Position numbers and translations under genes: made by a program. This document shows, one piece after another, positions 3,001 through 19,878 of a DNA stretch of 35,738 nt. Origin of the DNA: a virus (lineage: Duplodnaviria; Heunggongvirae; Uroviricota; Caudoviricetes); IMG/VR virus record IMGVR_UViG_2778261460_000003, one strand, 5' to 3'. The notes under the pieces are model-generated. The model was not told the DNA's origin. It did not search any database and saw only the letters and a list, made by a program, of their open reading frames with translations. Numbering within the stretch: the first letter of the stretch is position 1; every line of letters starts with the position of its first letter.

Positions 3001-3064
3001 GATTACGCGCGTGGTGGGTGATGATTGTTGCCGAATCATTTAACGGATACAAGGGGCTGAAGCT

Positions 3065-4249
3065 ATGAGTGAAACTCGTTTTCATGGTGCCCGTGTTACG
3101 GAAAATACCGACCTGGTAACAGCGATTAACGATGTTGATTCCAGTGTTATCGGTATCGTGGCAACGGCGGATGATGCGGACGCGAAGCTGTTCCCGCTGA
3201 ACAAGCCAACACTGCTGACCCGCGTCAATGACGTGCTGGGAAAATGCGGGACAACGGGGACGCTTTATCGTGCGCTTAAGGCCATCGCAGACCAGGTGAG
3301 CACAAAGGTGATCGTCGTTCGCGTGGCTGAACACAAAGAAGAAGACGGAAAGACGCAGGATCAACTGGTTATCGGTGGTTCTGAGGATGACGGCAGCTAT
3401 ACGGGGATGTATGCGCTGCTTGTTGCAGAGCAGGATGAAAGCATCGGATACCGTCCGCGTATTCTGGCCGCGCCGGAGCTGGACACGGAGGCTGTAACAA
3501 AATCCCTGTGCGTGATTGCAGGTAAACTGCGCGCGTTTGTGTATGCCTCATGTCACGGCTGTAACACGATGGCTGAGGCGATTACCTACCGCCAGAAATT
3601 CAACGAACGTGAGGTGATGCTCTTATGGCCGGACTTCATCGCCTACAACCCGAAAAGTGGCAAAAACGAAACGTTCCCCGCGCCTGCCTATGCGTGCGGC
3701 CTTCGTGCGTACATTGACCATGAGCAGGGATGGCACAAATCACTGTCCAACGTTCCGGTTAAAAATGTGCTGGGGATGTCGAGGCATGTGTTCTGGTCGT
3801 TGCAGGCCGAAGACAGCGATGCCAACAGCCTCAACAACAAAGAAATCACGACCATTATTCGTCGCAACGGGTTCCGCTTCTGGGGCAACCGCACACCGGA
3901 AACGAACGCCTACATCTTTGAGGTGTATACCCGAACCGCACAGGTGCTGGCTGATTCAATTGCGGAAGCGCAGTTTGAAACCATCGACAGTCCACTGACG
4001 CCTGCGAACGTGAAGGATGTTATCAGCGCCATCAGGGCAAAACTGGATTCGCTGGTTACTGCCGGGAAACTGATTGGCGCGGAGTGCTGGTATGACGTGG
4101 TGGATAACGGCACCACGGATTTACGTCAGGGGCGTGTGCGTATTCGCTACAAATATACGCCCGTTCCCCCGCTGGAAGACATGGAGCTTTACCAGACGTT
4201 TACTGATGAATTCTTTGGTCCCGCATTTGCGGTGCTGGGAGGTGCCTGA
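3065..4249 (+). CDS. FI: Contractile tail sheath protein (gpFI)
   Basis: 394 aa; followed by the tube gene with TGATG stop/start overlap; P2 FI-like size and position. Confidence 0.9.
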   Translation: MSETRFHGARVTENTDLVTAINDVDSSVIGIVATADDADAKLFPLNKPTLLTRVNDVLGKCGTTGTLYRALKAIADQVSTKVIVVRVAEHKEEDGKTQDQLVIGGSEDDGSYTGMYALLVAEQDESIGYRPRILAAPELDTEAVTKSLCVIAGKLRAFVYASCHGCNTMAEAITYRQKFNEREVMLLWPDFIAYNPKSGKNETFPAPAYACGLRAYIDHEQGWHKSLSNVPVKNVLGMSRHVFWSLQAEDSDANSLNNKEITTIIRRNGFRFWGNRTPETNAYIFEVYTRTAQVLADSIAEAQFETIDSPLTPANVKDVISAIRAKLDSLVTAGKLIGAECWYDVVDNGTTDLRQGRVRIRYKYTPVPPLEDMELYQTFTDEFFGPAFAVLGGA

Positions 4250-4761
4250 TGGCTGTACCAAAACATCTTCGCTTTTTTACGTTGTTTGTGGATGGTGAAA
4301 ACGAAGTGGGTAAAGTGACATCCGTCACGCCGCCCAAACTGACGCGCAAAACCGACAGTTATCGTGGTGGTGGCATGATGGGGGCGGTAAGTATTGATCT
4401 CGGTCTGGACGACTCCGCGCTTGATGCGAGCTTTGTCATGGGTGGAGCTGTTCGTGCACTGTTCCTTAAGTATGGCGGCACGATTGACGGCACGCTGCTG
4501 CGTTTTGCGGGTGAATATTACACCGATGCAGAAAGCGATCTGTATGAAATCGAGATGCGTGGGCGTGTGACGGAAATTGATATGGGGGAGGCCAAACAGG
4601 GCGAGGCCACATCACACACATACGCTGTCAAAAACACCTACTACAAGCTGAGTGTTAACGATCGCCCGCTGTGGGAAATCGACCTGTTGAACCACATCTA
4701 CCGGAAGGACGGCAAGGACATTGTGCCTGACCGCATTCGCTCCGCGCTTGGGCTTGGCTGA
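4249..4761 (+). CDS. FII: Tail tube protein (gpFII)
   Basis: 170 aa; start overlaps the FI stop; canonical FI-FII pair. Confidence 0.9.
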   Translation: MAVPKHLRFFTLFVDGENEVGKVTSVTPPKLTRKTDSYRGGGMMGAVSIDLGLDDSALDASFVMGGAVRALFLKYGGTIDGTLLRFAGEYYTDAESDLYEIEMRGRVTEIDMGEAKQGEATSHTYAVKNTYYKLSVNDRPLWEIDLLNHIYRKDGKDIVPDRIRSALGLG

Positions 4762-4816
4762 TAAGTAATATGCAGGCGACGCAGTGCGTCGCCTCTGACT
4801 GAAAAGGAGACAACTG

Positions 4817-5191
4817 ATGAAAGACATCGATACTGAAACCCGGAATAACACCGTAGCGGATGATGTGACGGCAGGTGAGGATATGGCTGTCGAACGTGGT
4901 GTAAAACTTTCCCGGCCAATTGAGCGTGGTGCCGAAAAAATCACATATGTGGAAATCACCGGGGCTATTGAGCAGGCGGGATCCCTGCGTGGTCTGTCGC
5001 TGTCTGATGTGCTGAATCTGAAAGCGGATACCATGTTCACGCTGTTGCCTCGCGTGACCTCGCCACGACTGGATGAAGTGATGATTAAAAAAATGTCGTC
5101 ACGCGATTTTATTCAGTTGTGCGCTGTGGCTGTAAATTTTATGAGCGAGCCAGACTCTGGCGCGAAGAGCGTGCAGGAGACGGCAGCGTAA
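4817..5191 (+). CDS. E: Tail assembly chaperone gpE (zero-frame product)
   Basis: Small ORF between tube and tape-measure genes; its 3' part overlaps a -1 frame ORF that runs into the start of T. Confidence 0.7.
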   Translation: MKDIDTETRNNTVADDVTAGEDMAVERGVKLSRPIERGAEKITYVEITGAIEQAGSLRGLSLSDVLNLKADTMFTLLPRVTSPRLDEVMIKKMSSRDFIQLCAVAVNFMSEPDSGAKSVQETAA

Positions 5192-5355
5192 TCACCCTGG
5201 TGTGCTTTGAGCACATCGAAGAGCTGGTGGCGGATATTGCCGCCATTTTTAACTGGTCGCCCGCCGAAATCTTCATGATGACGCCCGGCGAAGTGGTTAG
5301 CTGGCGTGAGCGGGCGGCACTTCGCAGCGGGAATGCAGATAATGAAGACTCTTGA
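4817..5355 (+). CDS. gpE+E' fusion via programmed -1 frameshift (putative slip at the A7 run 5087-5093)
   Basis: The -1 frame is open from 5089 to a stop at 5355 and overlaps the T start, as E' does in P2-like phages. The only homopolymer slip candidate in the permitted window is ATT AAA AAA ATG. Confidence 0.45.
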
Positions 5356-8149
5356 CATCCGGGTCGCTTTCAGCGCCGTTGACAGGCTGACCCGGCCTGC
5401 CGAAAACGCCCGCCGCCTGATGGGGCAGTTTGGTGACTCCATCCAGCGAACGCAGGGGGCGATCAAAAATCTCGAGCGTCAGGCGCGTTCATTTGAGCGC
5501 GCCCGCGACGCTGTCAGTAAAGCGGATGCGGGTATCGTGAAAGCACGACGCCAGCTTAACGCCCTTAATCAGTTACAACGCACGGGTACAGTGCTCAGCG
5601 AAAAACAACAAAAGCTGATGCAGCAGTTAAGCACCCGGCTTGAACGCCTGAATGAATCGCGCACACGGGAAATTCAGAAAATGCGGGAGCTTGGCGGAGA
5701 GCTGAAACGCCACGGCATTTCCCTGACAGGCAGCGATAACACCATCCAGCAGGCCATCAGACGCACCGAACAGTACAACAACCAGCTTGAACGCGAACGG
5801 CAGGCGCTTGCGCGTGTAACGCGGGCGCGTGAGCGGTATTCGCGCGCGCAGGAAACAGCGGGAAAACTGAAAACAGGTGGTGCGCTGGCAATTGGTGCGG
5901 CAGCGGCGGGCGGCTATGCTGCCGGGCGTTTTTTGCAGCCTGCGATCGGGTTCGGGAAAGAGATGTCCCGCGTTCAGGCACTGACGCGAATCGACAAAAA
6001 CAGCCCGCAGTTTAAGGCGCTGCGTGAGCAGGCGTTAAAACTTGGCTCTGAAACGCAGTTCACCGCAGGCGATGCCGCCAGTGGGCAGGCATTTCTTGCA
6101 ATGGCTGGCTTCACACCACAGGCCATTCAGGCTGCGCTCCCTGGCGTACTGAGCATGGCAACGGCTGGCGGTATGGACCTCGGTGAGACGGCGGATATTG
6201 GCTCAAATATTCTGACGCAGTTCGGTCTTTCTGCTGACCAGATGGACCGGGTCGGCGACACACTCACCGCAGCGTTTACCCGTACCAACACTGACCTTCG
6301 CGCACTGGGTGAAACCATGAAATATGCAGGTCCGGTGGCGGGTAAGCTGGGAATATCGCTGGAGCAGGCCGCAGCGATGGCGGGCGTGCTGGCGAATATG
6401 GGTATCAGGGGGAGTGATGCTGGTACGGCAATGCGTGCCAGCCTGGCTCGTCTGGCATCACCGCCAAAGGCGGCAGCAGAGGCGCTGAAAGAGCTTGGCG
6501 TGTCTGTCTCGGATGCCGGGGGCAAAATGCGCCCGATGGAGGATGTGCTGGCTGACCTTTATAAAGCTACCCGCAAATACGGGGAAGTTGACCGGGTATC
6601 GTTCTTTAAGGACATTGCCGGAGAAGAGGCTTTCACATCATTTATGGCCCTCGTTGATGCGGCAGGTGACGGCTCCTTACCCAAACTGAGAAAAGAACTT
6701 GAAGGCGCGCGCGGTGAGGCTGAACGCACGGCAAAGGTTATGGCCAACAACCTTGACGGCGATCTGAAATCACTCAGCAGTGCATGGGAAGGGTTGCGCA
6801 TCCGCATTGCAGATCTGATTGACGGTCCGCTGCGTTCTGTCACGCAGTGGCTCACGCGTGTGGTATCAAAGGTGACGGCGCTGGCGCAGGCCCATCCCGC
6901 ACTGACGCGCCAGCTACTGATTGCAGGCGGTGCACTGCTGGCAATGACTGCAACGGTTGGCTCGTTGTCGCTGGCTATTGGTGTGCTTGCTGGTCCGCTG
7001 GCAAAACTGCGTCTTGTTTTTTCCCTCCTGACCGGATCAATGAATGCTGTCAGGGTTCTGCCAGCACTATGGGGAATGGTGACGGGTTCCGTTTCGTTAC
7101 TGGGGGGCGCTATCGGGGCGTTGTTCAGTCCGGTCGGTCTTATCGTGGCTGCGCTTGCCGGAGCTGCCGTTCTCATCTGGAAATACTGGGATCCCATCAG
7201 GGCATTTTTTGCCGGGGTGTTCAGCGGGATTATGGAAAGGCTGACCCCGTTGCGCGAAACCTTTGAACGGTTTGGTCCTGTTTTTGACGCAATCGGAAGC
7301 GGGATCAGCCAGGTGTTTAACTGGTTTAAATCGCTGTTGTCACCGATGGAGTCCAGCAAGGAAACGCTGGATAAATGTACCAGTGCTGGCGAGGTATTCG
7401 GTAACGTTCTTGGCGGTGCGTTACAACTTGTTCTGACACCTGCAAAAATGCTACTGGATACGCTGGCGTGGATACTTGAAAAACTTGGCGTCCTTCCGGA
7501 TGAAGCGGAAAGGGCGCGCAAGAAAATCGAAGACGCACAGCGTGCGGCCATTCTTCAGGACAAGGTTGCCTTACTTCAGGGGGACCTGGCGAAAATCAAT
7601 CCGCCGAAGCCTGTGGAAAATGGCAATGGCACCGGAGGTGATAAACCCAAAGACAACAAACCGCTCACAGACAGCAATACCGGGACGCTACGCAGACTCA
7701 GCAAAATTGCTGATAACACAGGTAAGCTGGTTGATGAGACGAAAAAACGCATTGGCCCCGGCGATATTGTCTTTAAGAACTTGCCCCGCGCACTTGCTGT
7801 TCGTGGGGAGTGGCAGGAGCGGAAGATTGCACAGGTCAGAAAGCCTGCCCCCGCAATTAATATCACCCCCGTGGTCCCGGCTCCGCTGCCTCCGGCGCTG
7901 GTCCCTGTTGTTGCGGCCAGCTCCCACCCGGTGGCGGAGGCCATACGATCTCCAGTGGCATCAGTTCCTGTAACTTCCCGTAACCGGGAGCCTGTTGCCT
8001 CCGGATTTGGTGGTGAAATTCATGTTCATCTGCATAACGTTGTTACGCAGAATCCCCGCGAACTGGCGAAACTGGTCGGTGAAATGGTCAGGGCAGAAAT
8101 GGAACGGCGCGCCCGTGCCGGGCGTGGCAGTTTTTACGATAAAGATTGA
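5306..8149 (+). CDS. T: Tail tape measure protein (gpT)
   Basis: 947-aa ORF with a coiled-coil-like N-terminal region (runs of R/Q/E/L), a central Gly/Ala-rich hydrophobic segment and a Pro/Ala-rich C-terminus; located after E/E'. Start could be 5306, 5333 or 5342. Confidence 0.85.
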   Translation: MSGRHFAAGMQIMKTLDIRVAFSAVDRLTRPAENARRLMGQFGDSIQRTQGAIKNLERQARSFERARDAVSKADAGIVKARRQLNALNQLQRTGTVLSEKQQKLMQQLSTRLERLNESRTREIQKMRELGGELKRHGISLTGSDNTIQQAIRRTEQYNNQLERERQALARVTRARERYSRAQETAGKLKTGGALAIGAAAAGGYAAGRFLQPAIGFGKEMSRVQALTRIDKNSPQFKALREQALKLGSETQFTAGDAASGQAFLAMAGFTPQAIQAALPGVLSMATAGGMDLGETADIGSNILTQFGLSADQMDRVGDTLTAAFTRTNTDLRALGETMKYAGPVAGKLGISLEQAAAMAGVLANMGIRGSDAGTAMRASLARLASPPKAAAEALKELGVSVSDAGGKMRPMEDVLADLYKATRKYGEVDRVSFFKDIAGEEAFTSFMALVDAAGDGSLPKLRKELEGARGEAERTAKVMANNLDGDLKSLSSAWEGLRIRIADLIDGPLRSVTQWLTRVVSKVTALAQAHPALTRQLLIAGGALLAMTATVGSLSLAIGVLAGPLAKLRLVFSLLTGSMNAVRVLPALWGMVTGSVSLLGGAIGALFSPVGLIVAALAGAAVLIWKYWDPIRAFFAGVFSGIMERLTPLRETFERFGPVFDAIGSGISQVFNWFKSLLSPMESSKETLDKCTSAGEVFGNVLGGALQLVLTPAKMLLDTLAWILEKLGVLPDEAERARKKIEDAQRAAILQDKVALLQGDLAKINPPKPVENGNGTGGDKPKDNKPLTDSNTGTLRRLSKIADNTGKLVDETKKRIGPGDIVFKNLPRALAVRGEWQERKIAQVRKPAPAINITPVVPAPLPPALVPVVAASSHPVAEAIRSPVASVPVTSRNREPVASGFGGEIHVHLHNVVTQNPRELAKLVGEMVRAEMERRARAGRGSFYDKD

Positions 8150-8155
8150 GGAGTC

Positions 8156-8650
8156 ATGGCCATGATGATGATCTACGGCATGTTTGTTTTTGAGCTGCGC
8201 ACATTGCCGCATCAGCAGTTACAGCAAAACAAAAGCTGGCGGCATGTGAAAAATGAACGCGTTAACCGTTCAGCAAGCTGGCAGTATATCGGCGCAGGTG
8301 ATGATCGCATCGTGCTTTCCGGCGTGCTTTATCCTGAAATTACAGGTGGCGAAGTGTCGCTTTCGTTGCTGACCACGCAGGCATATACAGGACGCCCCTG
8401 GCCTCTGATTGATGGTGTCGGGCAGATTTACGGCATGTATGTCCTGACCGGAACGAATACGACCCGCTCCGAGTTTGATCGCTACGGTAAGGCGAAAAAG
8501 ATAGAATTTTCACTGACTCTTGAACGCTGTGATGAGGATTTGCGGGAGCGCCTGCAATCCTCATCGTTCAGTGATATGCTGTCCGGCTTCAAAGATAAGG
8601 TCACATCATCCCTTAACAGCGCGGCCAGCTCCGTTAAAGGGCTGTTTTGA
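8156..8650 (+). CDS. U: Tail protein gpU
   Basis: 164-aa ORF immediately after T; size and position match P2 U. Confidence 0.8.
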   Translation: MAMMMIYGMFVFELRTLPHQQLQQNKSWRHVKNERVNRSASWQYIGAGDDRIVLSGVLYPEITGGEVSLSLLTTQAYTGRPWPLIDGVGQIYGMYVLTGTNTTRSEFDRYGKAKKIEFSLTLERCDEDLRERLQSSSFSDMLSGFKDKVTSSLNSAASSVKGLF

Positions 8651-8657
8651 TTAACGC

Positions 8658-8687
8658 AAAACCGCTAATGGTCAGATTAGCGGTTTT
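8658..8687. terminator. Bidirectional rho-independent terminator between convergent U and the invertase
   Basis: Perfect 12-bp stem AAAACCGCTAAT / ATTAGCGGTTTT with a 6-nt loop; T-runs on both strands; the stem includes the invertase stop codon. Confidence 0.55.
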
Positions 8688-9276
8688 CATTTTCCTGAGT
8701 CTGCCTGGTTGTTTCTTCAGCCTGTATATCGCCTACAGGGTGATAACGATAAATCGTCGATATGCCGATGTCGTAAATGATCGCCAGTTGTTTCCTGTCA
8801 TGACCGTTTTTAATCAGCCTCGCTATTTGCTCGTGTTGTTCTTTTGTCAACTTCGGGCGACGTCCGCCAATGCGTCCTTGTGCGCGTGCTGCTGCCAGCC
8901 CGGCCAGTGTACGCTCTACAATTAATTCACGTTCCATTTCGGCTAAAGCTCCCATGACGTGAAAAAAGAAACGCCCCATGGGTGTTGATGTGTCAATGCT
9001 GTCCGTCAGACTACGGAAATTAACACCTTTTTCCCGCAATTCCTCAATAAGCGTGATCAGGTGTTTCATACTTCTGCCCAGTCTGTCCAGCTTCCAGACA
9101 ACCAGCGTATCTCCTTCTGATAGCGTTCTGAGCAGTTTTTTCAATCCCGGTCTGGCTGATTTCGTTCCGCTGATTTTATCTTCAAAAATCAGTTCACATC
9201 CTGCGCACTCCAGCGCGTTACGCTGCAATTCTGTATTCTGGTCATTTGTTGATACGCGGACATAGCCAATAAGCAT
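8677..9276 (-). CDS. Serine recombinase, DNA invertase of the Pin/Gin/Cin/Hin family
   Basis: MLIGYVRVSTNDQ N-terminus with catalytic Ser in VSTNDQ, then WKLDRLGRSMKHL and a C-terminal HTH; closely matches my recollection of e14 Pin. Adjacent to the invertible fibre segment. Confidence 0.9.
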   Translation of the reverse strand: MLIGYVRVSTNDQNTELQRNALECAGCELIFEDKISGTKSARPGLKKLLRTLSEGDTLVVWKLDRLGRSMKHLITLIEELREKGVNFRSLTDSIDTSTPMGRFFFHVMGALAEMERELIVERTLAGLAAARAQGRIGGRRPKLTKEQHEQIARLIKNGHDRKQLAIIYDIGISTIYRYHPVGDIQAEETTRQTQENENR

Positions 9277-9303
9277 GATGGATCCCCTGAATAAAAACCG
9301 GGG

Positions 9304-9813
9304 ATGATGCCAGTTAGCCGTAATCTCTGCATTTTCTTAAACGTTGGTTTGGGAGAAACGATAGATAAAGCCTCCGGAGCTATGCAGAAATCGGCTAATG
9401 GATATGATATTTCTGATGTATCAGCCTTCCGAAATGCGCTCCAGTTAGGGACCGCTGCAACACGAGATGTTGGAGCAGATAATGCCTCGAAGTTACTGGA
9501 TTTAGACAGCTTCAGGTCAATGATGTCAGGTAATGGCTACATCTACATTCCATGCATTGCGACGACAGGAAACCCGGTGAAACTTATGTTGCAGTGGGGA
9601 ACGGTGGCAACACAAAAGGGAGTTGATGCTGGATATGCCTTACCATTTGCTTTTCCCTATGCAGGTTTGTTTGCGACCGGAAACCGTGGAACATCTGGCT
9701 ACAATGCCGCGATGAATGTGCGTATTGCCAGCAGAACGCATATCAGTATTCAGAACTGGTCGCCATCCGGAGAGGGCACCGAAGATTGTTGTTTTATCGC
9801 GTTGGGGTATTAA
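9304..9813 (+). CDS. Alternative tail-fibre C-terminal segment (Sv'-like); expressed only after fusion to the H N-terminus upon inversion
   Basis: Frame encodes ...FLNVGLGE|TIDK..., sharing GLGE with H exactly at the crossover site; followed by its own tail-fibre assembly gene. Confidence 0.65.
   Translation: MMPVSRNLCIFLNVGLGETIDKASGAMQKSANGYDISDVSAFRNALQLGTAATRDVGADNASKLLDLDSFRSMMSGNGYIYIPCIATTGNPVKLMLQWGTVATQKGVDAGYALPFAFPYAGLFATGNRGTSGYNAAMNVRIASRTHISIQNWSPSGEGTEDCCFIALGY
9332..9357. repeat. gix/hix-like inversion crossover site (right site)
   Basis: TTTTCTTAAACG-TT-GGTTTGGGAGAA; right half and core are a perfect inverted copy of 11241-11254; resembles the remembered gix consensus. Confidence 0.5.
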
Positions 9814-9815
9814 GA

Positions 9816-10232
9816 ATGAATAAATTTTATAAAGGCTCTTTCTATCCGGAAGCACTAAAAGATGTATATATCAGCGCCGGTTCATGGCCTGAAAATGGCG
9901 CTGATGTTGATGATGAAACAATGGCAATTTACACAGGCGTAGCGCCAGAAGGCAAAACGCTGGGGGCTGATAAAAATGGTAATCCTGCGTGGATTGATAT
10001 CCCGCCACTCTCCGCTGAACAACAGATTATTCAGGCTGAACAGAAAAGAACGGTATTGCGTTCTATGGCTGATAAGGAAATAGTCTGGAGACAGGATGCT
10101 TTTGATGCGGAAATCGCGACGGCAGAAGAAACCGCCGCGTTATCTGAATGGAAAAAATACCGGGTCTTGCTGATGCGCGTTGATACATCAAATCCCGTCT
10201 GGCCTACGCCTCCGGGGGAGCAGGCCAATTGA
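9816..10232 (+). CDS. Tail fibre assembly protein (alternative, U'-like)
   Basis: Ends ...NPVWPTPPGEQAN (WPxxP tail-fibre-assembly motif); convergent with and overlapping the 3' end of the G-like gene. Start chosen at MNKFYKG. Confidence 0.7.
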   Translation: MNKFYKGSFYPEALKDVYISAGSWPENGADVDDETMAIYTGVAPEGKTLGADKNGNPAWIDIPPLSAEQQIIQAEQKRTVLRSMADKEIVWRQDAFDAEIATAEETAALSEWKKYRVLLMRVDTSNPVWPTPPGEQAN

Positions 10233-10797
10233 TATCCGGCGCGGTGCTGGTATCTGTTGCCGTCACCGCGTCAATGTAATCCAGCACAGCGTTAAGCCGG
10301 GTTGTTTCTGCCTGCGTCAGTTTCCGCCCGGCCTGTAATTTCAGCTGAGTCAGACTAATGGAAGCCATTGCAGCATCAATCAGCAACTGGCGCTGTGCTT
10401 CTGCCGCGTCTACTGCGGCGCTATGCTGTGCCTCGGTATCCGTCACCCATTTCTCACCATCCCATTTATCGTATGGCGTTAACGGTGAAAGCGTGACATA
10501 ACCGTCTTTGATGGCACCGATATAATCCACTGTAACAGCTGCGCCATTTTCGATTGAGTAAACAGTCTCATTGCGATGGTCCTCTTCATGGCTCCATCCC
10601 TTACCCGTGAATACTGCCACTTGCCCCGGAATGTTTTCGCCCGGGTCAATACCAGTGGAACAGGCGGGCATACTTACGCCAGTATTAATATATTCATCAG
10701 ACCAGCCCGTATATTCAGACGTTACTGCATCATAATAAAAACAACGCATATCACCCGGCACTGTAGCCAGTCCATTTTCATCAAAAACAGGTTTCAT
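10204..10797 (-). CDS. G: Tail fibre assembly protein (gpG-like)
   Basis: 197 aa ending ...DINWPAPPEA; directly downstream of H. Confidence 0.8.
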   Translation of the reverse strand: MKPVFDENGLATVPGDMRCFYYDAVTSEYTGWSDEYINTGVSMPACSTGIDPGENIPGQVAVFTGKGWSHEEDHRNETVYSIENGAAVTVDYIGAIKDGYVTLSPLTPYDKWDGEKWVTDTEAQHSAAVDAAEAQRQLLIDAAMASISLTQLKLQAGRKLTQAETTRLNAVLDYIDAVTATDTSTAPDINWPAPPEA

Positions 10798-12386
10798 TAT
10801 TTAGCCCTCACCAGAAAGTTAAATGCAATATTTCGCGGTCTGACAGCAACAAAATTAACACCATCTCCTACTGAGTTACTGGTGTACTGAAATCGAGAGA
10901 AACCTGGCTGGTGTGCTGATATTCCATCGTAATCAGCAATCGCATGGCCGGACCCTTCTGGATAATTACCACCAAATTGCGATAAAGATGTTGCTGCCTG
11001 CCAGCTTAATAATGCTCGCCCACTGTCCGCCCCTCGCCCATCATCCCAGATACGAATGAAGTCACCGCGGGCTTCAGGTAATACCAGCGAAGGAAACACT
11101 TTTGCCAGCACAGGGTAATCAGTGGCAGAGAATTTCGCGCCGTTGAACTTCAAAAACACCATGCCGGACCAGCTTTCGATTACGGTATCTGGCATTGCGG
11201 CGGACGGCCAGAAGAACGGAACGCCAATAGCTGGAGCACCTTCTCCCAAACCAAGGTAATCAAGAACTCCCTGAGTGCTGGTTTTACCAAGAATGGCACG
11301 TCCAACACTTGTCAACGCGGTTAACGCGGCACGATCTGCTCCTGTAAAATATGGGAGTTTATCTGCTGATGTAGCAAGCTCCGCCAGCGCCGTCAGGGTG
11401 GCATCCTTCGGTTGCTTACCCGCAAGCGCGTTAGTCATGGTGGTCGCAAAATTCGGGTCATTGCCCAGCGCCGCAGCCAGTTCGTTCAGCGTGTTCAGTG
11501 CATCAGGTGACGAATCTACAAGTGCGGCAATCGCGGCCATAACGAAAGCCGTGCTTGCGATCTGGGTACTATTAGTCCCCTGTGGCGCTGTTGGTGTTGT
11601 TGGCGTTCCGGTCAGTGCCGGGCTGTTTAATGGTGCTTTCTTGCTCGTTTCATCCATTACCGCCTTAACAGCTTTTGGTGTCGCTGCCAGCGTTTCAGAC
11701 GTGCTGTTCGTGGCGCTACTGAGCTGAACAATCCCTTTTTGTGTTGTGGTGGCGTTCTGGGCGGTATATTTCCCGTCAGCCAGGTCATATGCAGCCTTAA
11801 CTGCTTTCGGTGTTGCGGCCAGTGTTTCTGATTCACTGTTAATTGCACTGCTTAACTGAGTAAAACCTTTTGCGGTCAGCGAGGCGTCCGGGTGACGTCG
11901 TGACTGTTCGTGCTCTGAGATTTTATCATCCACATATTTGCGGGTTGCCAGAATCACAGACGGGTCGATTTTCAGCGTGATGGCTTCGGTGTTCGTGACA
12001 ACCAGAATCATGCGGATAGTCTGGGTGCGTCCACTGCCTTCCTGCAACTGCGGTTTGTACGTTTCCGGGCAGTTTGCCACCGCAATGAGTACACCTTCAT
12101 CATCATAAAGACCAATCTCACGGATCCAGAATCCTCCCTCGTTTTCAGGGATGATTTGCTCCGCAATAATCTGGCTCTGATTGTTAGGGTCAACACTCAG
12201 AAGATTCAGCGGTGCAATGCGTTTCTGGTTAATCAGTTTTGTTTGTGCAGGGTCTGGTGTTGGTAACACACCATTTGCATCACCAACGGCCATTTGCGTC
12301 AGATTCAGCTTACTGCCGAGCATCGTCGCGTTAGCCAGTCGTGCTGCGCCCTGATTAGTCAGAATGGCGTAGTATTTCACTGTCAT
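10797..12386 (-). CDS. H: Tail fibre protein (gpH-like), constant N-terminus plus currently fused variable C-terminus
   Basis: 529 aa with repeated TQLSSA..SETLAATPKAVKA motifs typical of fibres; contains the left crossover site inside the coding sequence. Confidence 0.85.
   Translation of the reverse strand: MTVKYYAILTNQGAARLANATMLGSKLNLTQMAVGDANGVLPTPDPAQTKLINQKRIAPLNLLSVDPNNQSQIIAEQIIPENEGGFWIREIGLYDDEGVLIAVANCPETYKPQLQEGSGRTQTIRMILVVTNTEAITLKIDPSVILATRKYVDDKISEHEQSRRHPDASLTAKGFTQLSSAINSESETLAATPKAVKAAYDLADGKYTAQNATTTQKGIVQLSSATNSTSETLAATPKAVKAVMDETSKKAPLNSPALTGTPTTPTAPQGTNSTQIASTAFVMAAIAALVDSSPDALNTLNELAAALGNDPNFATTMTNALAGKQPKDATLTALAELATSADKLPYFTGADRAALTALTSVGRAILGKTSTQGVLDYLGLGEGAPAIGVPFFWPSAAMPDTVIESWSGMVFLKFNGAKFSATDYPVLAKVFPSLVLPEARGDFIRIWDDGRGADSGRALLSWQAATSLSQFGGNYPEGSGHAIADYDGISAHQPGFSRFQYTSNSVGDGVNFVAVRPRNIAFNFLVRAK
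11241..11266. repeat. gix/hix-like inversion crossover site (left site, inside H)
   Basis: TTCTCCCAAACC-AA-GGTAATCAAGAA; 14-bp perfect inverted repeat with 9344-9357. Confidence 0.5.
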
Positions 12387-12991
12387 GCGTTTACTCTCAG
12401 ATTATCAATTAAATGAATGGCCGGGGCAGGGAAATAATCCCCTTCGACAATAATGGACTCCGGGGTGTAGGGATAAACCGTCAGGGCATCGCCGTGATAG
12501 CATCCCGTACCAACGAAAATCTTTCCGTTCACACTCAGGCTGATCGCCAGCCCCGTCAGATGGCGACTTACTGGTTTTGCATCCGCAACAAGGCGCTCAA
12601 GTTCCTGATACATTTCATCGGTGATGCCCTGATCAAGTACTCCGACAACAATGCGAAATGTTCCTGGCTCCTCGTTGAGTTGCCACCACTCCTTTACTTC
12701 AATCAGGTAGCCGAGAGGCTCCACGGCTCTTCGCAGTGCGCTGATGGTCCCTTTGTGTCGGTGTATCAGCCATGCATCACGAATTACCTGTCGCTTTGTC
12801 TCTTCCGGCCAGTTGCGATCCCAGCGGTCAACGGAAAACGCCCAGGCGAGATAAGGCAGCAGATGCACCGGGCAGGTATCCGGCGACCACAGCGTATTGA
12901 GGTCTACCGGAATGTCTGTAATGCGTGTTCCGACGGCTTCGGCACAACGCATGAAACTGCTGGCTGATGGCGGTAACAGTGAATTACTCAT
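12383..12991 (-). CDS. I: Baseplate assembly protein gpI
   Basis: Position between H and J; internal start at MSNSLL chosen to limit overlap with J (track ORF extends to 13024). Confidence 0.7.
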   Translation of the reverse strand: MSNSLLPPSASSFMRCAEAVGTRITDIPVDLNTLWSPDTCPVHLLPYLAWAFSVDRWDRNWPEETKRQVIRDAWLIHRHKGTISALRRAVEPLGYLIEVKEWWQLNEEPGTFRIVVGVLDQGITDEMYQELERLVADAKPVSRHLTGLAISLSVNGKIFVGTGCYHGDALTVYPYTPESIIVEGDYFPAPAIHLIDNLRVNA

Positions 12992-13880
12992 TGCGCCCAC
13001 CTTCGCTGATGGTAAATGACTCACAGCGCGCCGCCTGTATGTCGCTGATGGCCATATTCTGTGTGGGTTCGATTATCTCCACGCGTTGCACGCCGTGCAC
13101 ATGAAGTGCGGCAGCAATGGCGGACAACGCCACGTCCTGACCGATAAGCCCCTGTTCAGCCAGCCACTTCCTGAATGACGATTCCGCCGCGGCCAGAATA
13201 GGTTCGGATTCCGGGCCGGGGTAAAAGTACAGTTTTGCATTCAGCCGCCATGTCACGATTCTGGCGCTCTGTACCGTCAGGCGGTCGGCCACCGGGCGGG
13301 TATCCTCTGCATTCAGAACGGCGCGAACGGTATTAAGCAACGCCTCCGTTGCTGTGCCGTCGCCTTCAGTGGACAGGATGGAAACCGTCACACAGGCCGG
13401 AGACGGACTGATAGCCCGCGCATCGCGCACCAGACCGCTGGCGCTGCGGGCAAAATACTCGTATGCACCTGACGGGCCAGCAACACTCAGGCCGTCGTAC
13501 GCCCGCTGCGCCCGCAGTCTCAGCGAGGTGTCGCTCTCCATCACCGCGTCGGTGGTATCCGTTGCCGGAGTGATAACCAGGCGCTTTGTGTTCATATTGC
13601 CCGCGAGGTTGTCCAGATTTGTCCCTGAACCGTGGCTTAACATGCAGGCGCGTGCGCCCTCGTTAACCCGCTGGCGTAACAGCATTTCACGAAAAGACAT
13701 GGTTTGAGCGATAACGTTCAGGGGTTCCGATTCCAGCTCCAGCGCGGCGGAGACGGCTTCACGCTGTTCGGCAGGATAGGACGCAATCATCATGGCCTTT
13801 GTGTCAGCCAGAATTGCCTCAAAATCAGGCTCCGCGATGATGGCGGGTTCCGGTAACTGGGAAAGGTCAACAGCAGGCAT
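12984..13880 (-). CDS. J: Baseplate assembly protein gpJ
   Basis: 298 aa; P2 J-like size and position. Confidence 0.85.
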   Translation of the reverse strand: MPAVDLSQLPEPAIIAEPDFEAILADTKAMMIASYPAEQREAVSAALELESEPLNVIAQTMSFREMLLRQRVNEGARACMLSHGSGTNLDNLAGNMNTKRLVITPATDTTDAVMESDTSLRLRAQRAYDGLSVAGPSGAYEYFARSASGLVRDARAISPSPACVTVSILSTEGDGTATEALLNTVRAVLNAEDTRPVADRLTVQSARIVTWRLNAKLYFYPGPESEPILAAAESSFRKWLAEQGLIGQDVALSAIAAALHVHGVQRVEIIEPTQNMAISDIQAARCESFTISEGGRNE

Positions 13881-13883
13881 GAT

Positions 13884-14234
13884 TTACTCTCTCAGCGTGA
13901 TGGTTAATTCAACATTCTGCATGGTCTGCATGACAGTGCCCGACAGCGTCACCCCGGCGCGGCCTCCTGCCTTCCAGACAACGTCGATGGCGTCCAGGGC
14001 AATGCGGGGTTCCCATCGTGTCAGCGCAATCACGGCAGCACTCATGCATTGCAGACGCGTGGTGTTATTCATGGGTTCGTCAATCAAATCAGGCACAAGG
14101 CTGCCATATTCCCGTCGCATAACTCGGCTTGCCAGCGGGGTGGTCAGGATGTCCCTGACTGACTGTTTCAGGTGCTCCGTATCGTTCAGGTTTTCCGTCC
14201 CGTCCGGATTCATTCCTGTGTAGCGGGTTGTCAC
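13884..14234 (-). CDS. W: Baseplate wedge protein gpW
   Basis: 116 aa; P2 W-like size and position. Confidence 0.8.
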   Translation of the reverse strand: MTTRYTGMNPDGTENLNDTEHLKQSVRDILTTPLASRVMRREYGSLVPDLIDEPMNNTTRLQCMSAAVIALTRWEPRIALDAIDVVWKAGGRAGVTLSGTVMQTMQNVELTITLRE

Positions 14235-14812
14235 TGCGGGCCTCCTGTCGAATCGCTGCCGCCTTTCACGCCACCGTGTTTATGCGTATGCACGGTAATG
14301 CCGTTTGAGGTGAAGTTGCCGCCGCTGTGCGTGATATTGCCGCTCATCTTTCCTCCTTTTGTGACGTCAAGCGTCGCTGTTCTCAGAAGGTTTGTGCATT
14401 CCACGACGGGCGTATCCAGTTTCACGCTGACGGATGTCTGCAAAGTGGCCGTTTTCATGCCGCTGGCGTTCAGTGCGCCTGCGTCCGCGTCGTAGCGGAA
14501 CACCGCGCCGTCCGGCGCGCTGACCACGATTTCTTTCAGGCTTTTGCCGGGTGCCGGATTGGCATCACTCCACAGGCTGCCAATTATCATGGCGGTTTCC
14601 GGGTTGCCGCCGATGCAGGCAATTACCACCTGTTCGCCTGGTGATGGCGGCAGCCATACATTGAAGGCTCCCGCGCGCGTGGTGTTCCAGCGCAGCCAGC
14701 CTGTTTCCAGTTCGCCGCTGCGAACGCGTACGCACCAGGATTCCTCATCAACTTCAGAGATGATCCCGGTGCGGATGATGTTGCTCAGCAGTCGCATGAG
14801 TTCTGCGCTCAC
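14231..14812 (-). CDS. V: Baseplate spike / assembly protein gpV
   Basis: 193 aa; P2 V-like size and position, Gly-rich C-terminal tip. Confidence 0.8.
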   Translation of the reverse strand: MSAELMRLLSNIIRTGIISEVDEESWCVRVRSGELETGWLRWNTTRAGAFNVWLPPSPGEQVVIACIGGNPETAMIIGSLWSDANPAPGKSLKEIVVSAPDGAVFRYDADAGALNASGMKTATLQTSVSVKLDTPVVECTNLLRTATLDVTKGGKMSGNITHSGGNFTSNGITVHTHKHGGVKGGSDSTGGPQ

Positions 14813-15453
14813 CGTACAGCCTCCGCAATCCGGCCCAGCACCGTGTTATAAATCAGGCGTTCATCTGCCTGACTGATGCCCAACAGCTCACGTACCGGGT
14901 AATCGGTGAAAATGCCCGGCGCAACCTGATCGCGCTCACCGAACTGATGAACGCGTGCAATACGTGCGGCCACGCCGCTGTAACCCACCGTCACACCGGA
15001 AGCATCTGCACGGGCTTTCAGGTAGCGGGCGGTGCGCAGTTTTACGAACATGGGGACGCGCTTTGTGCTGTCCTGGTTGATGCGCCGGGTGCGTATTTCC
15101 AGAAAACGGTCGATGTCATCCCGGTAAAACGTGCGGATATTGTTTTTATCCTCATCCCACCCGGTAATGGTTCGCCCGTATTTCCCCGTGTCGTGATGCC
15201 AGTTTTTCAGCGTGCGTGCTTCGTTATTCCAGATAAAGCGAATGCGCTCCTGTATCCGGGTTACGCGGCGTCTGCGTGGTGTCCATGCGGTCCCGTCCGG
15301 CGCTTTCTGTGACCGGATACGTGCCTGCTGGGCGCGGCGTAAATCCTGTGCCAGCTTTCTGGCGATGTTATTGATGGCCTGCTGATTCAGGCTGTCGCGG
15401 ATGGCCTCAAAGGTTTCATCCACGCGGGTGAATGCCTTATCCATCGCTTTCAC
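14809..15453 (-). CDS. S: Tail completion / virion morphogenesis protein (gpS-like)
   Basis: Position between R and V. Longer than P2 S (214 vs about 150 aa), so the true start may be internal. Confidence 0.55.
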   Translation of the reverse strand: MKAMDKAFTRVDETFEAIRDSLNQQAINNIARKLAQDLRRAQQARIRSQKAPDGTAWTPRRRRVTRIQERIRFIWNNEARTLKNWHHDTGKYGRTITGWDEDKNNIRTFYRDDIDRFLEIRTRRINQDSTKRVPMFVKLRTARYLKARADASGVTVGYSGVAARIARVHQFGERDQVAPGIFTDYPVRELLGISQADERLIYNTVLGRIAEAVR

Positions 15454-15904
15454 CCCACGTCACATCCTGGAATACATGCGACCAGTCGCCTTCGGAAGAG
15501 GGCAGACGGGGTTTTGGCTCCGGCAGGTGTTCTGCCTGCGGTGTGCCCTGACTGTTGCGCGTAATGCGAACGCGTTCCCGCAGGGGGAGCGTAAACAGGA
15601 GATCGGCGCTGTCATCGTCATTGATAACGGCGGAAAATTTGATGTCCTGATTACGCTCCGGATTGAGCAACAACTGTGGCTGATTTTCGGATAACCACGC
15701 CAGTAGCGGCAGCGTGAGGTCGTCCAGCTCCCCGGCGTAATCCATGACAAACATCACCATCTGATAGCGGTAAACAAACGAGGGCGTTTCTCCGGTCGTT
15801 TCAATGTTGCCGCTCTCCACGAAAATGGTGAATTTTTCCGGGTTAGCCTGACACCATCGGCATGAACGGGTCATGGCTTCACGCAGGGAATCAGTTTTCA
15901 GCAT
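15437..15904 (-). CDS. R: Tail completion protein gpR
   Basis: 155 aa, matching P2 R in size and position. Confidence 0.75.
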   Translation of the reverse strand: MLKTDSLREAMTRSCRWCQANPEKFTIFVESGNIETTGETPSFVYRYQMVMFVMDYAGELDDLTLPLLAWLSENQPQLLLNPERNQDIKFSAVINDDDSADLLFTLPLRERVRITRNSQGTPQAEHLPEPKPRLPSSEGDWSHVFQDVTWGESDG

Positions 15905-16181
15905 GGTTGTTATCCTCGTTGTTCAGCCGTTGCAGCCTGCGCTGTTCCAGTAATTCAATGGCCTGTTTATCCGCGTTACAGGTTTCCAGTGCATCCAGAA
16001 GGCGGTCGCCCCATATACCGAGATTTCCCCATGTGGGAGTATCAGGGAAGGGGGGAGGCGTTACCGGTATGGTCAGCGTCTGCGGTATAAGCCGTACTGA
16101 CGGCGCTGGCCGAGGCGCGTTCTGCGTGCCTGCGCAGCCTGTCAGTAAAACGAGCGTCAGGCAAAGCGTGGGCGCATTCAT
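15891..16181 (-). CDS. Outer-membrane lipoprotein spanin component (LysC/Rz1-like)
   Basis: MNAPTLCLTLVLLTGC lipobox signal, Pro-rich mature part; starts inside the i-spanin gene in another frame and extends beyond it. Confidence 0.6.
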   Translation of the reverse strand: MNAPTLCLTLVLLTGCAGTQNAPRPAPSVRLIPQTLTIPVTPPPFPDTPTWGNLGIWGDRLLDALETCNADKQAIELLEQRRLQRLNNEDNNHAEN

Positions 16182-16449
16182 CTTTTGCAATATCGTTGCG
16201 TAGCTGTTCACGTCTTACCTCTCCGTCCTGATTGCGTTGCTGATTTTCCACGCGGAGTTGCGCCAGCACCTGCTGCATATCCTGTACCCCGGCGCTGATG
16301 ATATTCAGGGTGTCGGCGGTGCTTTTCAGGGTGCTGGCCTGCGCTTCGTTTCTGGCGTTCTCCCGGCCCAGCGACCACGACAGACGCATGGATGTTCCCC
16401 ATCCGGCAATCAGAAGGAAAGCGACGCCCAGCGTGGGCCAGAGCTTCAT
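16042..16449 (-). CDS. Inner-membrane spanin component (LysB/Rz-like)
   Basis: Start at MKLWPTLGVAFLLIAGW (N-terminal TM) followed by a coiled-coil-like region; ATGA overlap with the endolysin stop. Confidence 0.6.
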   Translation of the reverse strand: MKLWPTLGVAFLLIAGWGTSMRLSWSLGRENARNEAQASTLKSTADTLNIISAGVQDMQQVLAQLRVENQQRNQDGEVRREQLRNDIAKDECAHALPDARFTDRLRRHAERASASAVSTAYTADADHTGNASPLP

Positions 16450-16838
16450 GCCGGATAGGCTCTGTGTGGTAACTGAAAATGCGGTCCGTCTTTCAGAGTC
16501 TTCCAGTCGCCGCCCCATTCCACCGGAATACTCAGTTCCCGGCTGGCCTGTCTGAATGCTGCTGCGATTTTTTCGTACAGTGGCCATTCCCATGACACCT
16601 GGCTGCCGATATAAGCCACAACATCCACGGCATGCCCCGTAAGGTGGCGGCTGTTCATGGTCTGGCTCTTACCCGTGGCCACCAGTTGCTTCTGGCGGTA
16701 ACGGCTGCGCAACCCTTCGGTGATACCAAAATCCACTTCCGAAATTTCCAGTGCCCGTCGGGTCACTTTCACCAGATCAGGATTTACGCCCTGCAAATTC
16801 TTTTCGCTCCGGCTGCTGAATTTAAATGTGTTGCTCAT
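16446..16838 (-). CDS. Endolysin, peptidase M15-type (L-alanyl-D-glutamate peptidase-like)
   Basis: HLTGHAVDV and DGPHFQ motifs (His/Asp/His zinc site of M15 peptidases); lysis-cassette position between holin and spanins. Confidence 0.7.
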   Translation of the reverse strand: MSNTFKFSSRSEKNLQGVNPDLVKVTRRALEISEVDFGITEGLRSRYRQKQLVATGKSQTMNSRHLTGHAVDVVAYIGSQVSWEWPLYEKIAAAFRQASRELSIPVEWGGDWKTLKDGPHFQLPHRAYPA

Positions 16839-17158
16839 TCGTCCTTCTCCTTCCCCCTGCGATTAAAGGCCGCAATAACCTTGTCGCGTGCTTTCTCTGC
16901 GCCCATAAAACCGATTGATGCGCCGATAAACGTCACGGCATCTTCAGGAAACCCGAAGAAGCGCAACGACCCGGCCACGGCCATGGCAAGAACGCCGCAC
17001 GCCAGCGATCCCGTTACGGTCTGAACCAGTGTTCGTCCGTCATAAAGACTCATCAGCGCGGAAATGCTGACCGCCGCGCCTACTGCATACACCGTTGGCA
17101 GGTGGTCAAAGAGCCACGCAATAACCTGCTCTGTGATCCCTGTTTGAATGGTGCTCAC
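16835..17158 (-). CDS. Holin (putative; GTG start)
   Basis: About 107 aa with two or three hydrophobic helices and a charged C-terminus; GGGGGGAG RBS before GTG at 17158; overlaps the endolysin start. Confidence 0.5.
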   Translation of the reverse strand: MSTIQTGITEQVIAWLFDHLPTVYAVGAAVSISALMSLYDGRTLVQTVTGSLACGVLAMAVAGSLRFFGFPEDAVTFIGASIGFMGAEKARDKVIAAFNRRGKEKDE

Positions 17159-17160
17159 TG

Positions 17161-17361
17161 CTACTCCCCCCACAACTGAATCATTTCTCGTTTTTTCTTC
17201 TCCGGCTCCGGCATCTCCACTTCCTGCCCGGCGTCCAGAAATACCTGCTGGCAGAGTCCGGGGTTGGCATCCAGCACCTTTTCGGTGACGCCCTGCGTCG
17301 TGCCGTAGTACCGGAAACAGAGCGAATCCACGGTGTCGCCTTCCAGTGCCTTCACTTTCAT
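17161..17361 (-). CDS. X: Tail protein X (gpX-like)
   Basis: MKVKALEGDTVDSLCFRYYG... about 66 aa; P2 X position between L and the holin. Confidence 0.7.
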   Translation of the reverse strand: MKVKALEGDTVDSLCFRYYGTTQGVTEKVLDANPGLCQQVFLDAGQEVEMPEPEKKKREMIQLWGE

Positions 17362-17864
17362 CAGCACAACTCCGCAAAGATTCGCGGGCGGCACAGAATG
17401 TCAGAGATGGCCCAGCTCACATCGCGCCACAAATCCGATGTCTGTATATCCAGTGCGTCCGCCCGGCGGTCGCCCTTATCCGTTGTGTCCGCATCGCGGT
17501 AACGCTCCAGAATCAGGGCGCGTGTGGCGGTATAAACGGCATTGCGCCAGTGCCAGAGATTGACGCTTTCTCCGTTAATTACGGGTGCCGGAACATCGGC
17601 CAGCGTCTGATGGCCAGCCGCCTGCTGTTCCTGCTGCCACGCTTCCAGCTCGCGGGTAACGTGTGCCACGGCCCCAGTGGCGGTATGCAGCAGGCGGGAG
17701 GTGGTCACACGGCCCGGCAGTCGTACCGCCAGACGCAGCTCGCGCAGCACAATATCCGGCCAGAATGCACCCGCTGAAATACGGGTATCACCATCATCGG
17801 TATCGGTGATGTCGTCCTCTGCGGGTCCGGGGTTGGTTCTGGCAACCATACTCATGGGGTTCAC
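17361..17864 (-). CDS. L: Head completion / stabilisation protein gpL
   Basis: 167 aa; P2 L-like size and position. Confidence 0.8.
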   Translation of the reverse strand: MNPMSMVARTNPGPAEDDITDTDDGDTRISAGAFWPDIVLRELRLAVRLPGRVTTSRLLHTATGAVAHVTRELEAWQQEQQAAGHQTLADVPAPVINGESVNLWHWRNAVYTATRALILERYRDADTTDKGDRRADALDIQTSDLWRDVSWAISDILCRPRIFAELC

Positions 17865-17956
17865 TCCTGAAAAAATCGGGCGGTGGGTGCGCGGTGTAAA
17901 CGGTCACGGAGTCAAACCGGAACACCGCGCACGCCGCCCGCTGACGGGGTCAGTCG

Positions 17957-19855: not shown

Positions 19856-19878
19856 AAAAAATTTGCTCCTTTGTCTTA

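Follow-up and report, generated by a model that had tools for sequence, protein, structure and literature searches.

Evidence for a two-state tail-fibre inversion switch of the Gin/Cin/Pin type in a P2-like prophage

The window (the whole 35,738-nt stretch of DNA analysed here, IMG/VR record IMGVR_UViG_2778261460_000003) carries D on the minus strand, FI-FII-E-T-U on the plus strand, and an invertase gene and H-I-J on the minus strand, an order unlike that of P2. As present, the tail-fibre gene H spans 10797-12386 on the minus strand and encodes 529 aa; I, J, W and V precede it on that strand, and the constant part of H is predicted to be expressed within a V-W-J-I-H late operon. The features of the tail-fibre region are as follows.

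8658..8687, no strand: hairpin with a 12-bp stem, lying where the ends of gpU and the invertase gene converge
8677..9276, minus strand: serine DNA invertase of the Pin/Gin/Cin family, 199 aa (Pfam, PDB and PHROG matches)
9170..9276, boundaries approximate, minus strand: putative recombinational (Fis-dependent) enhancer, the first ~110 nt of the invertase gene, from conservation
9332..9357, no strand: invertase-proximal 26-bp site, TTTTCTTAAACG-TT-GGTTTGGGAGAA, crossover at the core TT, 9344-9345
9346..9813, plus strand: alternative H tip, predicted silent, 155 aa from GLGE, with a gp53-like C-terminal domain (Pfam Gp53-like_C, 3e-08)
9816..10232, plus strand: tail-fibre assembly chaperone of the alternative tip, predicted silent, 138 aa (Caudo_TAP, 1.8e-31; PHROG 188, 5.4e-43)
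10204..10797, minus strand: TfaE-like assembly chaperone of the facing cassette, 197 aa (Caudo_TAP, 2.3e-26; PHROG 105, 1.7e-82; 61% identical to e14 TfaE)
10797..11252, minus strand: variable C-terminal tip of H in the facing orientation (residues 379-529), StfE-like/tail-collar type, in the segment
11241..11266, no strand: H-internal 26-bp site, TTCTCCCAAACC-AA-GGTAATCAAGAA, crossover at the core, 11253-11254, in codon 378 of H
11253..12386, minus strand: constant N-terminal part of H (residues 1-378), outside the segment (Pfam Phage_tail_fib N-terminal, 6.5e-63, and Phage_fiber_2 repeats)

Invertases of the Gin/Cin/Pin/Hin family are small, ~185-200 aa, and join a resolvase catalytic domain at the N terminus to an HTH DNA-binding domain at the C terminus; their catalytic serine (Gin Ser9/Hin Ser10) lies in the motif YVRVSTxxQ. 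The sequence-only reading had placed a Pin-like invertase next to the segment, and this is borne out by Pfam domains (Resolvase PF00239, 6.2e-52, residues 3-135; HTH_7 PF02796, 1.4e-12, residues 138-180), by the match of residues 1-185 to the Gin structure 4M6F in PDB (E=1.3e-91) and by identity to PinE at 151/184 residues (82%). The catalytic serine is present in MLIGYVRVSTNDQ, where it aligns as Ser9 with Gin Ser9; this is exactly the position at which the S9A mutant structure 3UJ3 differs. PHROG 125 'DNA invertase' also matches (1.8e-99), and identical residues number 141/193 for Gin and 199/199 for the protein of E. coli ES4. The C-terminal tail is 15 residues longer than that of PinE. The 5' end of the gene faces the invertible segment and transcription runs away from it, toward the hairpin at 8658-8687, which is likely a bidirectional terminator closing the unit.

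In the Gin and Hin systems the enhancer acts in cis, carries two Fis-binding sites and occupies the 5' portion of the invertase gene. In the window, the opening ~110 nt of that gene are nearly invariant among five sequences (the window itself, pin of e14, gin of Mu, phage 500465-2 and a P1-like phage), and synonymous-codon identity is 0.84-0.71 over codons 1-18, 0.63 over codons 25-36 and ~0.4 elsewhere in the gene. The proximal site is ~95-180 bp away from this conserved stretch, in keeping with the situation for Gin and Hin, where the enhancer is inside the invertase gene ~100 bp from the nearest site (PMC3798978). Inspection by eye for G-N13-C 15-mers gave candidate Fis sites at gene nt 22-36, 71-85 and 94-108, with spacings of 49 and 72 bp; these spacings and the central composition gave no confident assignment of two sites. 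Residues contacting Fis or the enhancer that are peculiar to Fis-dependent invertases are Lys47, Arg48 and Lys51 of Hin in helix B, and Gln151, Arg154 and Leu155 in DBD helix 1 (PMC3798978). In the window protein these positions are occupied by K46, K47 and R50 and by the motif Q-I-A-R-L, aligned with K/R/K and Q-A-G-R-L of Gin. For residue equivalence we took the Hin numbering to be offset by +1. Conservation of both the contact residues and the 5' stretch suggests that the window invertase depends on Fis and on an enhancer in the 5' end of its gene.

A perfect 14-bp inverted repeat had been reported within two gix/hix-like sites, and we confirmed its coordinates and sequences throughout: TTGGTTTGGGAGAA lies at 9344-9357 and its reverse complement at 11241-11254. 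The two 26-bp sites are inverted relative to each other, and in each a 2-bp core separates two 12-bp half-sites. Reading inward toward the segment, the left is TTTTCTTAAACG-TT-GGTTTGGGAGAA and the right TTCTTGATTACC-TT-GGTTTGGGAGAA, with TT as the core of both. Sites for Gin, Cin, Pin and Hin likewise consist of two imperfect 12-bp half-sites, and their cores must be identical for religation after rotation. The inner half-site plus core, identical at both window sites, equals that of e14 pixL and pixR, the whole proximal site differs from pixR by 1 nt, and the architecture is the same as for Mu gix, which makes these pix/gix-type sites. The distance from the proximal core centre to the invertase ATG is 68.5 bp here and 67.5 bp in e14. 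On the H side, the outer half-site GGTAATCAAGAA matches its partner half-site poorly (7/12), which may make the inversion reaction slower or biased. Both sites encode GLGE in frame, as proposed, H reading ...VLDYL GLGE GAPAIG and the plus-strand frame ...FLNV GLGE TIDK.

When the whole window (35.7 kb) was scanned with the 14-mer allowing up to 2 mismatches, only the two sites matched, and no third, shufflon-like recombination site was found; allowing 3 mismatches added a single match, at 26578 inside an unrelated gene. In shuffled sequence, 0.32 matches are expected at up to 2 mismatches, and 5/100 shuffles reached two; by our own arithmetic ~0.04 perfect 14-bp inverted repeats are expected inside 4.6 kb. 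Chance is untenable because the repeat is the e14 pix sequence, has an invertase gene beside it and sits in frame in each of the two tail-fibre frames. Having two sites only, the window falls outside the multi-site shufflon-like systems, which have at least three.

The segment holds two convergent cassettes, each predicted to be a tip with its own cognate chaperone, the StfE-like cassette now expressed and the gp53-like cassette silent. Identity of the present H tip is 41% with e14 StfE and 87% with its counterpart in phage 500465-2, and PHROG 3100 also matches (9e-51); the present tip has no detectable similarity to the gp53-like tip. The 3' end of the facing chaperone gene overlaps that of the silent chaperone gene by 29 bp. 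The ATG at 9304, outside the segment, is merely an extension by the ORF finder, and no sigma-70-like promoter match for the silent cassette was found in 8600-11300, in a crude scan that yielded none for the invertase either. We simulated inversion between the cores (9344/9345 and 11253/11254, 1909 bp apart), which yielded an uninterrupted H of 533 aa that is the same as the present H over residues 1-382, the crossover lying in codon 378. The sequence-only reading had predicted fusion of the first ~378 residues to a different C-terminal domain, with the second assembly gene (9816-10232) brought behind it; the fusion is indeed in frame, and in silico that gene comes to lie directly downstream of the new H 3' end.

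The window captures a single orientation, as had been pointed out, and observing only one orientation anywhere, together with disruption of the catalytic serine or the sites in relatives, had been named as evidence against a switch; the opposite orientation is present in E. coli ES4 and in strain TOE17. ES4 has a prophage of the same type in which the segment is reversed and 99.84% identical over 1914 nt (3 mismatches), with collinear flanks of 96.6% and 98.1% identity. Both strand switches relative to the window fall inside the 14-bp repeats, the predicted 533-aa H fusion ORF is intact, and the H-side site is the same, as it is in TOE17. In TOE17 the flipped H junction is 800/800 identical and the fusion ORF is again intact. 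Both orientations thus occur naturally in near-identical prophages, with breakpoints inside the repeat, and a reversed segment that has only 3 mismatches over its 1.9 kb implies that inversion was very recent in this lineage. Each state of the invertase-proximal junction is common among complete E. coli genomes, the two matching 77 and 200 of them at ≥80% coverage. The 3.8-kb region as a whole had no match at ≥80% coverage among complete E. coli genomes and might have been considered novel, an idea that we rejected: the segment is flipped in the closest relatives, and the search left the pieces unjoined. A scan of IMG/VR with the H-side junction found 24 contigs, in which at least three classes of tip follow the junction; the gp53-like tip was absent from this junction in all 24, so that no further flipped example came from that source.

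The closest classical system is the P segment of e14, the E. coli K-12 cryptic prophage (pinE, stfP-tfaP/tfaE-stfE), which like the window has two convergent tip and chaperone cassettes and for which both orientations have been shown within cultures (PMC4272514). The two differ in that e14, a defective lambdoid remnant, has only a short constant part and an StfP-like alternative cassette, while the window switch, with its gp53-like alternative, sits in an apparently complete P2-like structural gene set and follows a 378-residue constant region of H. The same phage family context, 14-bp repeat and mechanism are found in a two-state P2-like locus of EPEC O127:H6 E2348/69 (NC_011601:2977580-2979467), which inverts within clonal cultures as found by sequencing and PCR (Goldberg et al. 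2014, PMC4272514 Table S1). Its segment also measures ~1.9 kb and carries an StfE-like tip, a gp53-like tip and two chaperones; its proximal 26-bp site is identical to that at 9332-9357; and 132/192 residues of its invertase are identical to those of the window enzyme. Its distal site is divergent too, and its orientations stand at ~93:7 (PMC4272514). Unlike the window, that prophage is truncated, having lost the H constant part, and has the canonical P2 order, with the invertase gene followed by FI on the same strand. Another EPEC locus has three repeats and four states, whereas the window has two sites only.

Similarities extend to more distant systems. The Mu G segment and Gin share with the window 26-bp sites of AAACC-NN-GGTTT architecture, an enhancer region (putative in the window) at the 5' end of the invertase gene, and a constant part with alternative variable parts, the Mu chaperones being U and U'; Mu differs in its 34-bp repeats, its TC/GA core, its shorter constant part Sc, and tips largely unrelated to those of the window. 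The P1-like plasmid pEC73552_03 is 97.7% identical to window 8733-10205 (invertase, proximal site, gp53-like tip and chaperone), and the P1-like phage vB_EcoM-813R1 has the alternative cassette at 98.4% identity in the flipped, expressed position. These elements have a Punavirus rather than a Peduoviridae backbone and a different tail-fibre constant part, and the S gene of the P1-like phage has many more fibre repeats than H. Salmonella Hin, which serves flagellar phase variation, belongs to the same subfamily of Fis/enhancer-dependent serine invertases, with the same 26-bp site design and conserved Fis-contact residues. Hin flips a promoter for flagellin genes from inside its own segment; in the window it is a coding C-terminus that is swapped, and the invertase gene is outside the segment.

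We conclude that the locus is very probably a two-state inversion switch of the Gin/Cin/Pin type in the tail-fibre operon of a P2-like (Peduoviridae, Gemsvirus-like) prophage. The central claim of the sequence-only reading, an invertible tail-fibre switch with crossover sites in coding sequence, is supported, every testable element having held. Dimers of the serine invertase (8677-9276) would bind the two inverted 26-bp sites, assisted by host Fis on the putative enhancer at the start of the invertase gene. The enzyme would cut both TT/AA cores with a 2-bp stagger, turn half the complex through 180 degrees and religate, inverting 1909 bp. Inversion would leave the late operon promoter and codons 1-378 of H in place, so that whichever cassette faces them would be expressed: the StfE-like tip with its TfaE-like chaperone at present, the unrelated gp53-like tip with its own chaperone after a flip. 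A lysogen population would then be expected to release a mixture of virions with two receptor specificities. The switch is almost certainly functional; that it flips in this particular lysogen, and that the two orientations differ in host range, we infer. The system is an ordinary representative of the well-known Gin/Cin/Pin/Hin class, and switches of this kind have been described before in P2-like prophages.

The main alternative is a locked relic, in which sites and invertase appear sound but inversion has ceased and only the StfE-like tip is made, whether because the invertase is unexpressed, because its divergence leaves the H-side site too weak, or because the prophage is defective. It would fit the single orientation in the window, the weak outer half-site on the H side, the want of a sigma-70-like promoter match for the invertase in a simple scan, and the frameshifted invertases of some relatives, such as the P1-like phage 813R1. 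We consider it improbable: the invertase ORF is intact and identical at 199/199 residues in ES4, where the orientation is opposite with 3 mismatches, and ES4 and TOE17 carry the same H-side site. Gin, Cin, Pin and Hin cross-complement, and other invertases in the same cell might act on the window sites.

Homologous recombination or cassette replacement could also be invoked for the orientation difference from ES4 and TOE17, the repeats then being mere module boundaries. Cassettes are clearly exchanged horizontally, as the near-identical copies in the P1-like plasmid (97.7%) and 813R1 (98.4%) attest, at least three tip classes occur on the H-side junction in IMG/VR contigs, and the segment is more conserved than its flanks. 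Replacement would not, however, conserve both cassettes, and ES4 keeps both, with the whole 1914-nt block reversed and both breakpoints in a 14-bp repeat. Such a repeat is shorter than RecA-mediated recombination usually needs, an intact dedicated invertase adjoins, and equivalent loci flip in culture; we regard this account as very unlikely. Least credible of all is a coincidental repeat without recombination function. Short inverted repeats are frequent (19 pairs of at least 12 nt in the region), but this is the sole perfect 14-mer pair, it is in frame in both tail-fibre frames, and it flanks two convergent tip and chaperone cassettes and abuts an invertase gene. Its identity to e14 pix and its coincidence with the natural breakpoints in ES4 appear effectively to refute that explanation.

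The convergent gene order might have been a secondary rearrangement, perhaps made by the invertase; we rejected this, as the same order is found in phage 500465-2 (Gemsvirus), ES4 and TOE17. No site-like inverted repeat was found at the gene-block boundaries, the best match being 11/14, which 22/100 shuffles also reached. The invertase gene, proximal site and one cassette (8733-10205) are 97.7-99.5% identical to P1-like phage-plasmids, and the invertible segment shows 99.84% identity against 96-98% for the surrounding P2 backbone. One speculative and unlikely explanation is that invertase modules move between unrelated co-resident prophages (P1-like and P2-like) by recombination in trans at shared pix/cix sites, the alternative being ordinary homologous recombination in conserved flanks. 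If modules did move in trans, the invertase would be a system for cassette exchange between elements as well as an intramolecular switch.

The value of the locus lies in annotation and phage biology, and it raises no new mechanistic question. For prophage annotation, it is one tail-fibre gene with two alternative C-termini; RefSeq PGAP splits the flipped form into a pseudogene and a 'gp53-like' protein, and one silent tip is labelled 'integrase'. Host-range predictions for the phage should consider two receptor-binding tips. The near-identical prophages in opposite orientations are a clean natural example of inversion, and a possible positive control for inversion-detection pipelines.

The window is a P2-like prophage. 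The genes assigned by Pfam, and the invertase gene, lie as follows:

1810-3039, minus: gpD
3065-4249, plus: sheath FI
4249-4761, plus: tube FII
5306-8149, plus: tape measure T
8156-8650, plus: gpU
8677-9276, minus: serine recombinase (invertase), 199 aa, with resolvase and HTH_7 domains
10797-12386, minus: tail fibre H
12383-13024, minus: gpI
12984-13880, minus: baseplate J
past J, minus: W, V, S and R

The FI-FII-E-T-U block (3065-8650) is inverted relative to its canonical P2 counterpart, and the invertase gene, whose 3' end faces it, is convergent with it. This layout is normal in the Gemsvirus-type lineage of Escherichia phage 500465-2 (Peduoviridae), the nearest annotated phage, which has the window's gene order, including the FI-U block converging on the invertase gene. 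The inverted order is also common to the related prophages of E. coli strains ES4 and TOE17, and an EPEC P2-like prophage lacks it. No site-like inverted repeats were found at the block boundaries, where the best match, 11/14, is at chance level.

The invertase matches the crystal structure of phage Mu Gin (E=1e-91), with the catalytic Ser9 in place. It has 151/184 residues in common with PinE of e14 (a prophage of E. coli K-12), 141/193 with Gin and 132/192 with the invertase of an EPEC P2-like locus, and is the same as the ES4 invertase (199/199). The recombination sites match in their TT cores: the invertase-proximal site (9332-9357) is TTTTCTTAAACG-TT-GGTTTGGGAGAA, and the site within H (11241-11266) is TTCTCCCAAACC-AA-GGTAATCAAGAA. 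The inner half-site plus core dinucleotide (14 bases) is perfectly inverted between them, with no further copy in the whole window at ≤2 mismatches. At these sites the H frame reads ...VLDYLGLGEGAPAIG... and the plus-strand frame at the left site ...FLNVGLGETIDK.... An earlier sequence-only reading had called the recombinase Pin-like, which the domains, structural match, Ser9 and PinE likeness bear out; rechecking the sequence found its sites, in sequence and position, exactly as described, and confirmed its 14-bp perfect inverted repeat.

Sequences of the reference systems were retrieved, and their recombination sites extracted for comparison with the window. In e14, each of the two pix sites contains TTCTCCCAAACCAA exactly as in the window, and there is a single mismatch between pixR and the window's proximal site; the AAACC-NN-GGTTT design is shared by Mu gix. 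The proximal core lies 68.5 bp from the invertase start codon, versus 67.5 bp in e14. A hairpin followed by a T-run (AACTGGCATCATCCCCGGTT TTTATTCAGG; 9296-9315, minus) falls after the proximal site, directly upstream of the start codon, and is conserved in e14, a P1-like phage and phage 500465-2. It might act by attenuating read-through from the late operon into this gene, or by blocking the gene's ribosome-binding site.

The invertible segment consists of two convergent cassettes, each a variable fibre tip with its chaperone. The expressed tip, residues 379-529 of H, is StfE-like or tail-collar-like and matches PHROG 3100, with 41% identity to e14 StfE (its chaperone has 61% identity to e14 TfaE). 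The silent tip, whose C-terminal domain is gp53-like, is accompanied by a Caudo_TAP chaperone of its own, and no similarity between the two tips was detectable. Inversion was simulated between the core dinucleotides, 1909 bp apart. H remained open, going from 529 to 533 aa with its first 382 residues the same. The crossover fell in codon 378, and directly downstream of the new H there now lay the second chaperone gene (9816-10232). Tip and chaperone are thus exchanged together, in frame, just as the sequence-only reading had envisaged in fusing some 378 residues of H to another C-terminus and bringing that assembly gene behind it.

Exchange of tail-fibre cassettes has long been known among Mu, P1, P2 and e14-type elements, as in the classical P2 tail-fibre gene literature. 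Here, the stretch 8733-10205, which covers most of the invertase gene and runs over the proximal site into the gp53-like tip and chaperone, matches the P1-like plasmid pEC73552_03 at 97.7% identity, and the gp53-like cassette is 98.4% identical to that of P1-like phage vB_EcoM-813R1, where it is in expressed orientation; the StfE-like cassette has its counterpart in phage 500465-2, at ~90% identity. In IMG/VR, the window's 41-nt H-side junction recurs unchanged next to tips of at least three different classes. Two IMG/VR contigs carry this junction twice, as direct copies 2 kb apart in L019 and inverted copies 1.9 kb apart in L030; these double copies suggest that relatives have longer repeats or arrangements of several cassettes.

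Both junctions that only inversion would create were built and searched against every complete E. coli genome in RefSeq. TOE17 has the flipped H junction at 800/800 and ES4 at 99.9%, and ES4 also has the flipped invertase-side junction, at 99.9%; the window's own H junction, at full length and >92% identity, was found in 0 of these genomes. ES4 aligns to the window in three blocks: 1797-9357 collinear (96.4%), 9344-11257 on the opposite strand (99.84%, 3 mismatches in 1914 nt) and 11241-24118 collinear again (98.0%). The strand therefore switches inside the 14-bp repeats, and inversion has occurred naturally at exactly these two sites. ES4 and TOE17 both encode the predicted 533-aa fusion H as an uninterrupted ORF. 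In RefSeq, PGAP splits it into a 'phage tail protein, incomplete' (pseudogene) and a 'gp53-like domain-containing protein' (TOE17 sequence L002, 7932-9533; ES4 sequence L003, 6487-6948 and 7932-9533), and labels the silent StfE-like tip of ES4 'integrase, incomplete'. For the invertase-proximal arrangement, at ≥80% coverage, both states are common in E. coli genomes (window's state 77, flipped 200).

Neither homologous recombination nor replacement of a cassette can account for this difference in orientation, since the reversal is clean, both cassettes are kept and the breakpoints fall in the 14-bp repeat; chance is excluded as the source of the repeat itself. That the window holds a locked relic that no longer inverts is possible but unlikely, because in ES4 an identical invertase and identical sites adjoin the opposite orientation. 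Both orientations of e14 and of two P2-like prophage loci of EPEC E2348/69 have been seen in clonal cultures by paired-end sequencing and PCR (Goldberg et al. 2014, PMC4272514). The EPEC two-state P2 locus (NC_011601:2977580-2979467) has a proximal 26-bp site identical to the window's, and the same 14-bp repeat.

The Gin and Hin enhancers lie inside the invertase gene, ~100 bp from the nearest site, and certain residues occur only in invertases that depend on Fis (PMC3798978). By what is established for the family, we infer that the window switch would likewise depend on Fis and an enhancer. Consistent with this, the window protein has kept those residues, and the first ~110 nt of the invertase gene are nearly invariant in five systems, with synonymous-codon identity of 0.84-0.63 versus ~0.4 in the remainder, as expected where a gene also contains a DNA element. 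Two separate Fis sites could not be made out individually. A scan of 8600-11300 detected no sigma-70-like promoter for the silent cassette; as weak evidence, this fits a cassette that would depend for its expression on the late operon lying upstream of H, once placed there, and on no other source.

Several differences from the ES4 prophage lie elsewhere. (i) A cargo hotspot adjoining the portal gene holds a two-gene IetAS anti-phage defence system (24172-27455, minus), comprising the AAA ATPase IetA (360 aa; PADLOC 3.6e-89) and the subtilase IetS (734 aa; PADLOC 6.6e-41); ES4 has different genes at this position, and 24119-27812 has no match in its prophage. (ii) A 1.2-kb insertion (632-1796), between the ogr-like region and gpD, encodes a 274-aa protein (769-1593, plus) with no match in Pfam or PADLOC, and could represent cargo, as yet uncharacterised, of the third P2 hotspot. 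(iii) The replication endonuclease gpA (29186-32053, minus) is an intact 955-aa ORF, and its ES4 counterpart (sequence L008, 30428-33254) is annotated as frameshifted; judged by this, the window may be the more functional phage. The early region of this integrase-bearing prophage also encodes a ParM-type actin-like plasmid segregation protein (28150-29109, minus; Pfam 2e-82), and ES4 carries one too, with a partitioning/stability protein.

The invertible tail-fibre switch that the sequence-only reading proposed is supported, and the evidence supports a standard two-state inversion system of the Pin/Gin type. Switches of this kind are already known from experiments on P2-like prophages of E. 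coli, and the other orientation of this one is already present in public genomes as an essentially identical copy.
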